64,000 nucleotides of DNA, taken from contig NC_043022.1 of NCBI RefSeq assembly GCF_006345805.1, positions 6,882,001-6,946,000 on the forward strand, written 5' to 3'. The position numbers and the translations under genes were made by a program. Of the stretch, positions 15,093-57,911 are shown in pieces. Position 1 is the first letter of the stretch; each line of letters starts with the position of its first letter. Origin of the DNA: Octopus sinensis (taxonomy: Eukaryota). The notes beneath the pieces were generated by a model. It saw only the letters and a list, made by a program, of their open reading frames with translations. It was not told the origin of the DNA and made no database searches.

Positions 15093-15499
15093 ATACACAC
15101 ACACACACACACACATAATACTCACAGATCCACCAATTCACGCACCAAACAGGATATTACAGCAATTTCTCCCCCTTCCAGCCATTGCCAATCTGCAGTG
15201 AGCCCCCCCCCCCACCTGACAACCTTGAGGAAAACCTTGACCTGAAACTTATTTTACACTCTTCAGAGCAAAATAAACCTTTCAAATAAGCCAACTCTCA
15301 TTATTAACTGACAATCCAATGATGACCATCCTTTCTATGTCAATACTATATCATTTCCATTGTGTCCTTGCTTTGTAGTCAGTGATTTCATTGTTATTTC
15401 CAGCATGCTTGTTGTCCACATAAACCAGTCACTTTTCAGTGTTTTTCCTTGGAAATAGCACTAAATGTGCCATGGAACTATGAGTGTCATGGCACTATG

Positions 15500-15946
15500 G
15501 GTGTTGTAATGACATGCATAAGATCTGGTCATCAAATCTAAGTAGAGACTTCAAACTTGAAATCTTCAAAGCCACAGTCGAACCAATTCTACTATATGGC
15601 TCAGAAACCTGGACGTTATCAAAGAAGCTTGAGAGGCGGTTGGGTGGAACCTACACTCGCCTCCTTATGAGAGCTCAAAATCTCTCATAGAAGCGTCATC
15701 TAACCAAAATGCAAATATATGGGAAACTACCACCTGTGTCATCTCTTGTGAAAGGTAGGAGAGTCCAGTTTGCTGGACATTGTTGTAGAGCTGAAAAAGA
15801 AGTAATTTCTACTCTTCTCCTCTGGAAGCCATCTACTCGCAATACCAGAGGGCGCACACTCTCCTACCCTGATGCAATCTCCGGAGATACAGGCATCCAG
15901 CAACAGGACCTCTGTAATGCTATGATGAACAATGATGATGATGATG
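15500..15946 (+). mobile_element. RTE-like LINE 3' fragment (same family as 4144-4408)
   Basis: KIWSSNLSRDFKLEIFKATVEPILLYGSETWTL...VQFAGHCCR; (GAT)n tail. Confidence 0.85.
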
Positions 15947-33267: not shown

Positions 33268-33500
33268 TGTGTGTGTGTGTGTGTATGTGTTTGTGTGTCT
33301 GTGTTTGTCCCCCTAGCATTGCTTGACAACCGATGCTGGTGTGTTTACGTCCCCGTCACTTAGCGGTTTGGCAAAAGAGACTGATTGAATAAGTACTGGG
33401 CTTCCAAAGAATAAGTCCCGGGGTCGATTTCCTCGACTAAAGGTGGTGCTCCAGCATGGCTGCAGTCAAATGACTGAAACAAGTAAAAGAGTAAAAGAGT
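33029..33500 (+). mobile_element. SINE family A, full length
   Basis: Head to tail; ATACATATATAT on both flanks. Confidence 0.9.
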
Positions 33501-33510
33501 ATACATATAT

Positions 33511-33680
33511 ATCACTTTGATCACTTTGACCGACCAGTCCGTCAGGCGTCCATTTGACACCGCTGGTCACAGCATGCTGTCCACTCTTCTCTGGATCACT
33601 TTTCTCATCCACGTGATCCCAATCGTCCCCTTGAAATCGTCTCTCCACCGTTGTGGAGGTCTTCCGGGTGGTCTTTCTAT
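33511..33680 (-). mobile_element. Short 3' end of another RTE-like LINE
   Basis: Minus strand RPPGRPPQRWRDDFKGTIGITWMR; tail (CAAAGTGAT)2. Confidence 0.65.
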
Positions 33681-33864
33681 ATAGTGCACAGAGGATATCC
33701 AGAGATTCTCAGTATAGAAGACAGTTAGTAGTGTTCCAATGATTCAACGTTTGATGTCTTTACAGGGGACCAATTCCTTGGGGTAAAGAATGGCTCCAAG
33801 AGGGATCAAGTTGAGCAGATATGCAGATAAACAAATTAGATATATTGAACATAACAGTTTGGGT

Positions 33865-35948
33865 CCTTCCTTTGGCATCCGTCCATCTCGAGAGACGATG
33901 GTGTAGCTCAGAAAAAGTGGTGGGTTTATCTGGACTTCCTGGTGTGGCTGTGCAGACCAATCATCGAGCGGCAGTCCCTACCACATCTGGTGTAAGTGAA
34001 AGGGGACGAGAGCTGTGGTTGCTGCTGCTGCTCCTTTCGCCTGGTTCTCTTTACTTTGGCAGTAGTGGTCCTCAGGTTCTCTGCTGTCATGGCACTGTGC
34101 TTGACACTGTGTCACCAGGCGCTTCTGTTGGCAGTGGCGAATTCCCATGTTTTGGGTGTTGATCTGGCATAGCTTTAGGTCTTTCTTGCAGATATCCTTG
34201 AAGCGCAGTTTGGGGCGTCCCATTGTTCTGGAGCCTTCCGCTAGCTGTCCGTACAGTAGATCTTTTGGAATCCATCCTGCATCCATTCGGCTGACATGAC
34301 CTAGCCACCGAAGACGCCTCTCACAGAGTGATGTTTACATGCTGTACATGTTGGCACGGTCCAAAACCTCTGTGTTAGTGATCCTGTCCTGCCATTTGAT
34401 ATGGAGAATGCGCAGCAGGCACCTCAGGTGGAAGCTATTGAGTTGTTTCTCATGTCGGGTGTAGGTGGTCCATGTCTCGCTTCCGTACAGCAGTATGCTC
34501 AGTATGCATGCTCGGTAAACTCTCAGTCTAGTATTCTTAGTGAGACTGGTGTTGTTCCATACCCATTTGTTAAGCTTGGCCTTTGCTGCTGTTGCCTTGC
34601 CGATTCTGCTCGTAACCTCTGTGTTGATGGACACAAGAGTTGGATATAGTGGGCCCGAGATAGGTGAAATTGTCGACCACTGCTAGGCTGTAGCCATCTA
34701 TGCAGATTGATGGGTTATGCTCTGCACCCTGCACCATGACGTCTGTCTTCTTCAGGCTGATATTTAGACCAAATTCTTTGTAGGCGTGGGACATGCAGCT
34801 CACAAGTTCTTGGAGCCCAGTTTCTGTGTGTGATGTCAGTGCTGCGTCATCTGCGAAGAGCATCTCTCGAATGAGTATCTTAGCGACTTTGGTTTTGGCT
34901 CATAGACGGGCGATGTTGAAAAGCTATCCGTCGCACCTGGTGTTGATGTAGACTCCCTCCTTGCTGGTCTTAAAAGCAAACTGTAGGAGCAGCGAGAAGA
35001 ATATTCCGAAGAGTGTTGGTGCAAGAACACAACCTTGTTTCATTCCGCTGTTGACTTCCGATATTGCGCTGTTGTAGCAGACAGTGCTGTGCATGTTGTT
35101 GTGGAATGAGGTTTTCACTTTGAGCAGGTGCGGTGGGCATCCTATCTTCTGTAGAAGTGTAAAGAGTCCATTCCTGCTGACGAGATCGAATGCCTGGGTG
35201 AGGTCAATGAAGGCTATATAGAGAGGCATCTGTTGTTCTCGGCACTTCTCTTGCAGTTGTCGTAGTGAGAATATCATGCCCACTGTGGATCATCCTGCTC
35301 TGAAACCACACTGTGACTCTGGGTAAACACGGGTTTGCCAAGGTCTGTAGGGGCGCTGGTGTGACTCGTGCGAAACTTTACCGACCACACTGAGTAGAGA
35401 GATACCCCTGTAGTTGTTGCAGTCGCTGCGATCACCTTTCTTTTTGTACAGGGTGACAATTTTAGCATCTCTCATGTCTTGCGGTATGTGACCATGTTCC
35501 CATGAGAGGCAGAGTAGATCATGCAGGGGGTGTAGCAGTGCAGGTTTCCCACATTTGAGGATTTCTGATGGGATGCCATCGTTCCCGGGAGCCTTGCCAC
35601 AGGCTAGTGAGTCGATTGCCTTGCTGAGCTCTTCCAGTGTGGGTGGAGAGGGTCTAGTTCATTCATAACCGGTAGGACTGGGATAGCGTTGAGGGCCGGC
35701 TCTGTGACGACATTCTGTGTGGCATACAGTTCAGGGTAGGGCTCAGGCCAGCGCTGCATTTGTTTCTCCTGGTCTTGGATTATTACTCCCTCGTTGGTCT
35801 GGATAGGAGCCGTCTTGGTAGGAGCTGGGTCTGTTGCCTTCTTTATGCCCTCATACATCCCACGCACATTCCCTGAGTCTGCTGCACTCTGTATGCCATT
35901 GCAGAGGTTCAACCAGTAAGTGTTGGCGCAGCGCCGGGCTGTCTGCTG
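33865..35948 (-). mobile_element. RTE-clade (BovB-like) LINE, 5'-truncated, frameshifted reverse transcriptase
   Basis: QQTARRCANTYWLNLC, KKKGDRSDCNNYRGISLLS, LRQLQEKCREQQMPLYIAFIDL, GMKQGCVLAPTLF, LFADDAAL, ILLYGSETWT, LYGQLAEGSRTMGRPKLRFKD. Shares the TSD AACAGTTTGGGT with the adjacent rRNA piece. Confidence 0.95.
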
Positions 35949-35949
35949 A

Positions 35950-36396
35950 GAGGAAAAGAAACCAACCGGGATTCCCTAAGTAATGGCGAGTAAACCGGGA
36001 GAAGCCCTATGCCAAGTCTCGTCGGCCGCACTGGTTGTTGAGAGCTGTGGTGCAAGGATCATACACGGTCGATTGTTTCGCCCGGCTAGGTTCGGAGTCC
36101 CCTCGATCGGGGCTGCCCAGAGCAGGTGCCAGGCCCATTCGGAGCTGGCGGCGATCAGTGGTGTTCATTGGCTCGAGAGTCGGGTTGCTTGGGAATGCAG
36201 CCCAAAGTGGGTGGTAAGCTCCATCCAAAGCTAAATTCGGGGGCGAGTCCGATAGCCAACAAGTACCGCGAGGGAAAGTTGAAAAGACCTTTGGAGAGAG
36301 AGTTCAAGAGACCGTGAAACCGCCCAGTGCGCTGCCCTCGACTTGGACTAGATTACCCGCCGAACTTAAGCATATTGCTAAGCGGAGAAAAAGAAC
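35950..36396 (+). pseudogene. 28S rRNA 5'-domain fragment, circularly permuted retrocopy
   Basis: Conserved LSU motifs GAGGAAAAGAAACCAAC, GAGTCGGGTTGCTTGGGAATGCAGCCCAAAG, AACAAGTACCGCGAGGGAAAGTTGAAAAG and GAGAGTTCAAGAG..CGTGAAACCG (35950 to about 36327) are followed by the true 5' end ACCCGCCGAACTTAAGCATAT..AAGCGGAG (about 36334-36396). Confidence 0.93.
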
Positions 36397-37424
36397 AGTT
36401 TGGGTATGAAACACAAAACATGTCTCTGTGTATACAAGCAAAACGATAGCAAGCAAAAAGTGGAGACTTTCAGGCGATGAATGTCTAAGTATATTCTTTA
36501 TCTGAAAGTCTTCAGTTTTTGCTTTCTCTCGTTTTACATGTATACATCATCACCATCATCATCATCATCATTTAATGTCCATTTTCCATGCTGGCATGGG
36601 TTGGACTGTTTGATAGGAGCTGACCAGCTGAAGGGCTGTTCAGGCTCCAGCTGTCTATTTTGGCATGGTTTCTTCTGCTGGATGCCCTTCCTAATGCCAA
36701 CCACTTTACAGGGTGGACTGGGGGCCTTTTATGTGTCTCCAGCACCTACAAGCCCACAAGATTAGGGATGCTCAGATGGAGAGGGTTGCAGGGGGCAACC
36801 ATGTTTTTACTTAGCTTGACGTGCGTGTGTTTGTTTCTGCATTTCTTGCCATGAATACTATTGAGACAATGTTGGTTTGTTTGTGTTCCTTACAAACGAA
36901 AAGTCCAGCTGTTGGGCTGCGAGACTTTATAAAAACCTTACTGGAAAAATATCAAATAGGAGTTGGTGTCAGCAGGGATGCTGGCTCCTAGATTACAGTC
37001 GTGAAATGTCTCGTGTAATCCATGCCAGCATAGAAAAGCAGATGTAAAAACAATGATGATGATGATGATGATATCCACACGAGGCGTTCATTCATTCATA
37101 AGATGGCTGTTCAAATGCCTGAGTTCCTTTTTCTCTTGTTCTTGATTGAGACGTGAAGTCACACACACACACACACACGTCCACTCAATGAAGGAATTGC
37201 TATACATTTGCTTGATCTGCTAGAAATAGCAGTCAACTCACACTCAAATCATATCTTACCAACTTCAACAAAAACAGACACATTGGAGACTGGTGTAGTT
37301 GTAAATACACTGCGTGAATTATAGATGAGATGGTCACAACTGGAGTGTCAGTGATCATAAAACTGCTTCCAAGCTGACTGTTGCCTAAACACCCGCTTCC
37401 TGCCTGGTCATTTATAAGAGACAT

Positions 37425-37651: not shown

Positions 37652-38045
37652 GCATGTCAGCCCGCATAGCTCAGTCGATAGAGCATCAGACTTTTAAGAA
37701 CTGGCCTGTTATGAAATCTGAGGGTCGCAGGTTCAAGTCCCTCTGTGGGCGACGATTTTTCTTTTGACTGATAGAATAAGCACTCGGCTTACAAAAGAAT
37801 AAGTCCCGGGGTCGAGTTGCTCGATTAAAGGCGGTGCTCCAGCATGGCCACAGTCAAATGACTGAAACAAATAAAAGAGTAAAAGAGTAATATATATGCA
37901 ACAGGCTTCATTTTAGTTTCTGTCTACCAAATCCCTTCACAAGGCTTTGGTCACCCAGTAGGAGACGCTTGCCCAGGGTGCCATACTATGTGATTGAACC
38001 GAGGACTATGTGGTTGGGAAACAAACGTCTTTACCATACTGCCCT
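37425..38045 (-). mobile_element. Old SINE family A copy hosting the tRNA-SINE chimera
   Basis: The family A sequence resumes at 37901 after the insertion. Confidence 0.8.
37660..37751 (+). tRNA. tRNA-Lys(UUU) with 19-nt intron (37697-37715); probably a pseudogene/retrocopy
   Basis: Acceptor GCCCGCA/TGTGGGC, D stem GCTC/GAGC, anticodon stem TCAGA/TCTGA, anticodon TTT at 37693-95, intron between positions 37 and 38, T loop TTCAAGT, downstream TTTTT. Defects: D-loop GG>GA and two T-stem mismatches. Confidence 0.85.
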
Positions 38046-54954: not shown

Positions 54955-57911
54955 CCATATTTGCTGGTGTATTAACTGGACTTTTTTTCAGATAGGAAAA
55001 TCTGAGAAAAGGGGGTGAAGGTTATACATGGGTACAAGGAAAACTTGGTCTAAAACATGGACATTATTTCATGTAATCATCCAAGTTTCATGTGGTACTA
55101 GCTCCCCTTACAATTCTTACCATTAAAACTAGTAAAAAAACTGTTTAAATATTCTTATTTCAGTGGCATCATCCATTTTGTCCATCATAAACTCATATAA
55201 CATTACGCATTTCAAGCCAACGTGCTCCGGTGTCATCTCAGTTGCAGCCTCCACTCCAATGGTGCTGCAGCCCTGTATAAGATGGACATGCGCTGGTAGA
55301 AAAGTGGCAAGAATATCTGTTAAGACTTACCTTTTATCCGACAAATGCCCCATGATTGACAGCTGATCGCAATTTCCACTCAGCCTCTGTGTCACTGCGA
55401 TTTATCTGAGTTTAGTAATCCCCAGGTCTACGACGTAAACAACTATTGTTCGGTGACCCGGATGTATTACTTATCTTGCCAAATAGGGAAACGAGAGAGA
55501 GGGAGAGCTGTGGTTCATTCTCGAATGTGATTGATGAAATGTATTTACTGGGTAACAAGTAAATTAAAATGGAATATGAAAAATTATTTCATATAGGCGC
55601 AGGAGTGGCTGTGTGGTAAGTAGCTTGCTAACCAACCACATGGTTCCGGGTTCAGTCCCACTGCGTGGCATCTTGGGCAAGTGTCTTCTGCTATAGCCCC
55701 GGGCCGACCGGGGCTATAGCAGTGGATTTGGTAGACGGAAACTGAAAGAAGCCCATCGTATATATGTATGTATATATATATATATGTGTGTTTGTGTGTC
55801 TGTGTTTGTCCCCCTAGCATTGCTTGGCAACCGATGCTGGTGTGTTTACGTCCCTGTCACTTAGTGGTTCGGCAAAAGAGACCGATAGAATAAGTACTGG
55901 GCTTACAAAGAATAAGTCCCGGGGTCGATTTGTTTGACTAAAGGCGGTGCTCCAGCATGGCCGCAGTCAAATGACTGAAACAAGTAAAGAGTAAAGAGTA
56001 ATATAAGGGGCGATAAGTACATTTATTCAGAATCCTCTTTATCTGCGAAAGGTAAGTTTCATCACCATCACCAATGCTATAAAGGAATACAAATCAAGTC
56101 AACTGGGATTTCATTACCGTACCTGAAAGTACTGGCAAGTGCACTGGTTTGTTTGTTGTTTGTAGTATATCTACGCAAATATGTAAAGATCAAAGGAAGC
56201 TTTCAAGCTATATCTTATTGTTTGGACCATAATTAGCTTTATTGACTTGTCTACTCTGTTCTTGAAGTCCCATCTGACTCATCTAATTTGCTCTTCAAGT
56301 CCACCAGTGGTCAAGATGAGCATTCACAGCTGTCCTCAAGCTCTCAGTTTCCAGGTTTGCTTAGGAGTTTGGAAACCGTGCAGTGGGCTGTCGTTTTGTG
56401 GCTGACAAGTCTGTTGTCCTATGATGGTGCTCCAATAAGGCCACAATCAAGTCAATGCCCAAGAAGACGACAATGAGGGGCAAAATGGTGCTGTGGCCAG
56501 AATTGGAGGAGAGGCTTGTTGGATGGGTGAGAAGAGAAGAGGATGGGAGGACTTGTGGTACTGGCACTCACCCTTCAAATTGAGGCCAAGAAGATCACCA
56601 AAGACATTGGTGTCAGAGACTTCTGTTCCAGCACATCATAAGCTTTTCGGTTTATGCACAGGCATGATCTGTCCATCAGGCATTGCACCCACATTGCACA
56701 GCGGTTGCTGGAAGATCTCGATGAGAAGACTGAGAGGTTCCAGTGGTTTATCATCAACCTGCGTAAATGGCGTCAGGACCCTCTGAGCTGCACTGGCAAA
56801 GCAGACTAGACTGCCCTCACGATCGATCTTCCAATGGCAAGAACTGTTGCTGAGAAAGGGAAGAAAACAGTGGAAATCATCACGATGGGTCACAAGAAGG
56901 ACCGTTTTATGGTGATGCTGGCTTGCATGGCTGATTGATGAAAGCTGCCACCATATGTCAGCCTCAAGAGGAAGAGACTACCCAAGGCTGCCAAGTTTCG
57001 GGAAGGGGCCATTGTTTGAGCCCAAGTGAAAGGTTGGATGGACCAAGCACTCATTGAGGACTGGCTTCGGGTAGTGTGGGTCAGTGCATCAGTGGACTGC
57101 ATCAGAGAAGGAGTCTCCTGGTTTTGGACGCATTCAGATGCCACAAGACAGAAGAAACCAAGGTGAAGATACGTCATCTGAACATCGCCGTGGCAATGAT
57201 CCCCAAGGGAATGACATCCCTTCTTCAACCCTTTGATGTTGCAGTCAACAAACCATTTAAGGACTGTCTGAAACACCGCTGGGAGGATTGGATGGCCAAT
57301 GCACTGCTGGAAATGACAAAGACTGGGTGCACAAAGAAAGTTGACTTGGGGACAATCTGCGAGTGGATCCTGAAGGTCTGGGAAAACATCACCAAGTGGG
57401 CTTTCCTGAAGTGCTGTTTATCCAACGCACTTGGCAGCACAGAAGAAGACATCTTGTAGAAAAATGATGCTATCTCTCCCGACTCTTCTGATTCTAGCGA
57501 TGACAACGATGAACTGACATATGCAGATGATCAACTCTACGAGGTCTTCAATGGGTCGTCTGATGACAAAGAGTTCTTCAGCTTTGTGTGAAGTCTCTCC
57601 CCATTTGGATCGGTTCTTTTTAGGACCATACATTTCCAAGAAAGAATATAAAGATCACAATAAATCATATAAACACACATAATAAAAAGATGTTCTCTTA
57701 TTATCTCTTGCATTCAAAACCTGGACTTTTTCCATTAATAATTATGAGCATCAATGATTGCAGTTGGAATGAAATCATCAGGAAATTGAAGTTTGTATTC
57801 ATCCCGCATTTCTCCCTTTTCATTAGCCCTGGTTATTTCCCGGTTTCCCACATGATTTTTCCTGTGGGGGACTGAAAATCAGGGGTGCAGTTTATACACT
57901 GGCAAATTAGG
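54955..57911 (+). mobile_element. pogo-superfamily (POGK/Passer-like, DD35D) DNA transposon, full-length fossil
   Basis: Imperfect TIRs CCATATTTGCTGGTGTATTAACTG / CAGTTTATACACTGGCAAATTAGG. Broken transposase at about 56440-57550: FMHRHDLSIR (CENP-B HTH), KLPPYV, KGWMD, SLLVLDAFRCH...IPKGMTSLLQPFDVAVNKPFK with 35 residues between the Ds. Confidence 0.88.
55596..56000 (+). mobile_element. SINE family A inserted in the pogo element
   Basis: Full length; ATATA on both flanks. Confidence 0.9.

Follow-up and report, generated by a model that had tools for sequence, protein, structure and literature searches.

A permuted 28S rRNA copy joined in opposite orientation to a LINE remnant in the genome of Octopus sinensis

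Analysis of a 64-kb stretch of Octopus sinensis DNA (64,000 nucleotides, here called the window) identified a copy of the 5′ part of 28S rRNA, in two pieces of permuted order, abutting the truncated 5′ end of a LINE. The locus is classed with twin-primed inverted RNA/LINE chimeras on four features: RNA at the LINE 5′ end, opposite orientation, one target-site duplication (TSD), and internal priming, the last a weak match with 2 nt of complementarity. A known mechanism explains the locus in outline, and the second, permuted 28S piece is an unusual addition. Our preferred reading of that addition, to which we give a probability of about 0.5, is twin priming in which the second reverse transcriptase (RT), on reaching the 5′ end of a linear 28S 5′ fragment, jumped to that fragment's own 3′ end.

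Anatomy of the insertion and its surroundings

The features of the insertion are as follows, in window coordinates.

33853..33864, plus strand: left copy of the TSD, AACAGTTTGGGT, abutting the LINE 3′ end; 2 occurrences in the window
33865..33928, minus strand: LINE 3′ untranslated end, about 64 nt; the C-termini of homologs align down to 33929-33935
33929..35949, minus strand: decayed, 5′-truncated LINE open reading frame (ORF), probably RTE-type, from codon ~368 to the end of an endonuclease and RT protein of ~1040 amino acids (aa)
35949..35953, no strand assigned: LINE/28S inversion junction, with 0 to 4 nt of possible microhomology, depending on the DNA of the LINE family
35950..36329, plus strand: 28S piece A, aligned by Rfam to LSU model positions 53 to ~412-414, right end ±2 nt
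36328..36332, plus strand: jump or ligation junction between model 412 and model 1, with 3 to 5 bases outside both pieces
36333..36395, plus strand: 28S piece B, LSU model 1-63, the last 2 nt common to the TSD
36394..36405, plus strand: right copy of the TSD, 12 bp, the putative primer for the minus-strand 28S cDNA

The whole insertion, LINE and 28S copy together, spans 33865-36393 (2,529 bp), and a single TSD brackets both parts, with the LINE on the minus strand and the 28S copy on the plus strand. The 12-bp exact repeat at 33853 and 36394 is the sole exact match of at least 7 nt between 33780-33900 and 36370-36480; among random window pairs (20,000 drawn, 15,272 kept as non-low-complexity), 33 had 12 nt in common. 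No TSD was found around the 28S copy alone, where the longest repeat is 5 nt, and a later, separate insertion of the 28S copy was rejected because it lacks a TSD of its own. The one shared TSD and the lack of a TSD around the 28S alone suggest that LINE and 28S arrived in a single event. Most likely, the two were inserted together, in opposite orientations. An R2/R1-type insertion into rDNA was also rejected, since the flanking DNA is not rDNA in an Rfam scan. The earlier note had described the 28S copy as a stand-alone insert of 447 bp and had overlooked the LINE context. The copy is instead the end of the 2,529-bp insertion that it shares with the LINE, and as an inverted RNA/LINE chimera it falls in an already known class.

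The LINE ORF carries 3 frameshifts and 5 stops over 669 codons, and the decay of the copy is estimated at about 6% (95% range, 2 to 16%). Mapping with tblastn places codon ~368 at 35948 and the C-terminus near 33930; homology ends at 35948-35949, and the 28S copy starts at 35950, directly at the 5′ end of the truncated LINE. RVT_1 matches were obtained in two of six pieces, and this copy retains the RT only. The LINE homologs (n = 34) match at up to 73% across the full query, many of them with PF03372 and PF00078, and the full-length homologs are endonuclease and RT proteins (PF03372 plus PF00078) of 1041 to 1093 aa. The residue before the QQTARR motif is Ala in 18, Ser in 14, and Cys in 1 of 33 homologs, and Ser in the window. 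RTE elements are described, in the part of the source available, as having a single ORF of ~1000 to 1100 aa with an apurinic-type endonuclease and an RT (PMC9115989). The LINE 3′ end has an AAGG-AAGG tail (two units) and no poly(A), and the tail runs straight into the TSD. A short 3′ end with a simple-repeat tail instead of poly(A) is a feature of the RTE clade. Two RTE features are present here: the endonuclease and RT layout, seen in the homologs, and, as a weak feature, the short 3′ end with its AAGG tail. Domain layout and these general clade features together suggest that the LINE is RTE-type.

A host exon beside the left TSD was considered and rejected, as stops occur in all three frames. 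No host gene was found near the locus in a Pfam scan of 90 of the 276 candidate frames, which gave three matches, one of them above the cut-off (DDE_1). That match is a DDE_1 transposase remnant at 57058-57456 on the plus strand (E = 3e-17). Another LINE remnant lies at a distance (15484-15717, plus strand); it matches the LINE studied here at 30% over 63 aa in tblastx and has a weak DUF6451 match below the cut-off. On the minus strand at 33469-33708 is an 80-aa frame that gave no Pfam match and resembles the C-terminus of a different LINE; its tail may be represented by short 9-nt repeats at 33511-33532. To the right of the insertion, 36429-36546 forms an imperfect inverted repeat with 54-nt arms that are 81% complementary. 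Its DNA fold is -30.9 kcal/mol, a value without a shuffled control, and the repeat is possibly a small MITE-like remnant. Farther right, a tRNA-like gene (37660-37751, plus strand) has 20 extra bases in the anticodon arm that are left unaligned by the Rfam model. ARAGORN calls it a TTA "Stop" tRNA. The gene reads as a TTT-anticodon tRNA, which we take to be tRNA-Lys, interrupted by 19 nt where a canonical intron would sit and followed by T runs. To our knowledge, such introns are rare in animals. Several substitutions suggest that this gene is a pseudogene.

The permuted 28S copy

The permuted order reported in the earlier note was confirmed by alignment to the Rfam model, with model 53 to ~412-414 preceding model 1-63, and the position given there as about nt 430 is correct in the copy's own numbering (about 432). 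In a separate Rfam scan of 36318-36420, piece B was recovered with an E value of 3e-8 and 37.8 bits, a score that is under the gathering score of 50 owing to the short length of the piece. The end of piece A at 36327-36329 is a judgement from the Rfam LSU_rRNA_eukarya alignment, in which confidence falls at this point. The bases between the two pieces may be a continuation of the 28S, the 28S 5′ leader or ITS2 end, or non-templated.

Read by eye, the right end of piece A falls on the strand pairing with the 5′ end of 5.8S, immediately ahead of the D2/ES7 expansion. In the Rfam consensus lines, also by eye, model 405-414 shows complementarity to positions 3-12 of the 5.8S consensus, as does the 28S 5′ end to the 5.8S 3′ end. 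As both ends are complementary to 5.8S, the copied unit appears to be the stretch of 28S that 5.8S holds at both ends.

Only one rDNA locus of another eukaryote was found for comparison. This locus (L001, positions 234-895) lies on a metagenome contig from an unrelated eukaryote and has 5.8S, ITS2, and the first part of 28S in the normal order 5.8S-ITS2-28S 1-302. It was the one locus returned from metagenome contigs in a scan with an exact 27-nt motif, and it matches piece A at 81% over 58 nt and piece B at 93% across 46 nt; the same motif scan of viral and prokaryote collections returned 0 loci, and rDNA of the species itself was not found in these collections. A sequence-run search was also made: among the matches listed, 15 of 24 hold part of the insertion (7 studies, 4 organism labels), the best share of the insertion is 0.42, and all are assembled contigs, from which no inference is drawn. 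No RNA dataset holding the insertion occurs among the matches listed. Within the 64-kb window, no second copy of 35950-36160 or of 36230-36395 was found, and a check for an rRNA-derived SINE found the 28S copy to be single there.

The two copies of model position 53 lie 435 nt apart. The motif of roughly 12 nt that the earlier note placed at both ends of the copy does exist as a repeated stretch, but only 9 nt of it (model 53-61) are repeated 28S, with 2 nt more shared with the TSD. The TSD already begins within the right-hand motif, whose final three letters (36394-36396) belong to it, and the repeat has one mismatch, a G-to-A difference of piece B from piece A at model 56, where both the Rfam model and L001 have G. 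The Rfam structure line shows no pairing across model 57-64, which contains the putative priming site.

A proposed twin-priming path and its alternatives

In twin priming on a foreign RNA, as presented in the available portions of two reports (PMC4476161, PMC2912911), the second nick primes within the other RNA and the cDNAs are joined, and the internal priming site is often single-stranded with short complementarity. Opposite orientation together with internal priming is the signature of this process (PMC4476161 and PMC13174262, each as accessible). The primer role given here to the right TSD copy is taken from the twin-priming model (PMC4476161, in its accessible part). The first nick would have primed cDNA synthesis on the LINE RNA, over ~2.1 kb, and the second nick, 12 nt off on the opposite strand, would have primed inside the 28S at model 62-63. 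This site would be A-rich and unpaired and complementary to the target over 2 nt, a weak match to what is expected of internal priming. The template would be a 5′ fragment of 28S, trimmed from its 3′ side as far as the helix formed with 5.8S. The junction, within 3 to 5 nt of LSU model position 1, points to a processed RNA rather than rDNA as template. No free 28S fragment ending at ~nt 432 was documented in the literature searched.

The enzyme would have left this template at the 5′ terminus of mature 28S and, perhaps after adding several bases, continued from ~nt 432. After one lap, it would have met its own RNA:cDNA hybrid, or an end trimmed by RNase H, and stopped 9 to 11 nt on. The two cDNAs would then have been joined, and the copy would later have decayed by ~6%. 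In the accessible text of PMC13174262, the usual outcome of such events is an RNA 5′ start at the LINE junction, as for 5S; here synthesis ran on into piece A, which departs from that outcome. The R2 RT can add 3 to 5 bases that are not templated and then jump to the end of another template (PMC4117753, as far as accessible). The 3 to 5 junction bases fit an R2-like addition of this kind, or may instead all be templated, which would remove this hint of a jump. Such support for a jump is by analogy, as it comes from R2 RT, a non-LTR RT other than RTE.

The path proposed in the earlier note (priming at about nt 60, a run to the 5′ end, resumption at about nt 430, and one lap) fits the map, and the LINE and shared TSD now supply the enzyme and the primer that it lacked. 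Its idea that both pieces were copied from the same molecule retains modest support. Piece A stops 9 to 11 nt beyond the priming point, that is, past one lap of 435 nt. Under a uniform distribution of stops, the chance of a stop this close to one lap is 2.5% one-sided and 5% two-sided, for a measure chosen post hoc. The lap stop favors a single molecule, as the enzyme would there meet its own RNA:cDNA hybrid or the end that remained after RNase H action. The enzyme need not have halted there, however, because the R2 RT displaces annealed strands efficiently (PMC4117753, in the part accessible). A same-molecule template is modestly favored, on a post hoc figure from one locus.

The same twin priming with a jump to a second 28S molecule, either to the 3′ end of a fragment or to an internal site, is unlikely but is the alternative that survives best. 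Ribosomal RNA is abundant in cells, which is in keeping with such a jump. In the available parts of the sources, the R2 RT jumps between separate templates (PMC4117753) and tripartite LINE chimeras formed via double jumps are known (PMC2104539). The near-lap stop would then be a coincidence or the result of microhomology with the LINE cDNA, and up to 4 nt of microhomology are possible at the LINE junction. A second molecule requires the 2.5 to 5% coincidence and, in addition, that the acceptor too came from this 5′-most tenth of the 28S. The overlap copies differ at one of nine sites, as two molecules might, but a mismatch is expected at ~6% decay, and the affected position is G in both the Rfam model and the comparison rDNA. 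At the observed decay, the probability of at least one mismatch in 2 × 9 sites is about 0.66 to 0.71 (range, 0.30 to 0.94). Since decay suffices, the G/A mismatch is not evidence of two rDNA variants, and a derivation of the two pieces from different variants is not supported.

Doubtful, too, is a covalently closed RNA circle of ~435 nt, with the 28S 5′ end ligated to ~nt 432 and copied in one RT lap with no jump. The sequence fits a circle and a jump on linear RNA alike, and the lap geometry suits both equally. Pseudogenes derived from circRNAs, with non-colinear junctions, are known, and the same report cautions that an RT can cross open-ended structured RNAs (Dong et al., PMC4897178, in its accessible portion). 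A candidate ligase, C12orf29, joins 5′-phosphate and 3′-OH RNA ends and has reported cephalopod orthologs; it brings about RNA self-cyclisation in vitro, and knocking it out leaves 28S more sensitive to oxidative damage (PMC9931718, as accessible). Against a circle, no animal circular 28S 5′ fragment was found in the literature listings, and the 3 to 5 bases at the junction fit non-templated addition. In its specific form, which we regard as rather improbable, the locus would be the fossil of a ~435-nt 28S circle ligated by a C12orf29-type enzyme, arising from rRNA damage or turnover and copied once by an RTE RT during twin priming. The seal of such a circle, a similarly speculative element, would connect the 5′ terminus of mature 28S with the end of the helix that pairs with 5.8S. 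If true, the circle would provide an exact junction for seeking circular products of rRNA decay or repair in an animal.

An origin at the DNA level, in which circular or tandem 28S DNA was captured at the LINE 5′ junction, is improbable. A single crossover at the 9- to 11-nt motif, for example, would give exactly one lap with the motif doubled, and no extra assumptions would be needed for this lap or for the single base by which the motifs differ. A DNA breakpoint would, however, have no reason to lie as close as 5 nt or less to the 5′ terminus of mature 28S, the motif is missing from the left flank, so that chance filler at the LINE junction would be needed, and the two 28S stretches queried (35950-36160 and 36230-36395) have no second copy in the 64-kb window. 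An assembly chimera of high-copy rDNA reads is very improbable: rDNA and LINE reads are both high-copy, but a misassembly would not predict a perfect 12-bp TSD at borders 2.5 kb apart or a junction at a mature RNA end.

Relation to known chimeras and significance

Twin priming by mammalian L1 on foreign RNAs is reported for U5, 5S, tRNA halves, and 28S in the accessible literature. The locus resembles the inverted snRNA/L1 chimeras, as described in the available part of Doucet et al. 2015 (PMC4476161), in its foreign RNA next to the truncated 5′ end of the LINE, the opposed orientation of the two parts, the single TSD, and internal single-stranded priming with target complementarity. It differs from them in that the LINE is probably RTE-type, the host is not a mammal, the RNA is 28S rRNA, and a second, permuted piece follows the RNA 5′ end. 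Human 28S/L1 chimeras (Law and Burns 2026, PMC13174262) are likewise fusions of a 28S fragment of a few hundred nucleotides to the LINE 5′ end, and 3 of the 18 lie in antisense, an arrangement attributed to twin priming. Unlike the octopus copy, all 18, as given in the accessible part of that report, have a contiguous 28S interval, none with nt 1 or a permuted order. No permuted rRNA retrocopy was found in the literature listings searched, a scope outside which most subscription papers and bioRxiv supplements lie.

Two other systems share some aspects of the locus, as far as their sources are accessible. The circRNA-derived pseudogenes (Dong et al. 2016, PMC4897178) likewise have a non-colinear junction and lack poly(A), but they consist of back-spliced exons with a matching circle in RNA-seq, whereas the sequence here is rRNA with no splice sites. 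Membership in that class was rejected, as the junction is not an exon back-splice and both of its sides are rRNA. In R2 RT jumping (PMC4117753), the enzyme comes off a template at its 5′ end and, after the addition of several bases, continues from a 3′ end, much as proposed here; the octopus event would differ in starting from a second-strand twin-priming primer and in returning to the same molecule.

The insertion is a single dead locus that probably has no function. If the LINE is RTE-type, the locus extends twin priming in trans from mammalian L1 to such elements. The element added to the known process would be a template jump or a circle crossing on the second-strand primer, which is absent from the 18 human chimeras as listed in the accessible part of their report. 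The junction of 28S ~nt 432 to nt 1 offers a precise and inexpensive test for a discrete, possibly circular, 5.8S-clamped 28S 5′ fragment in animals.
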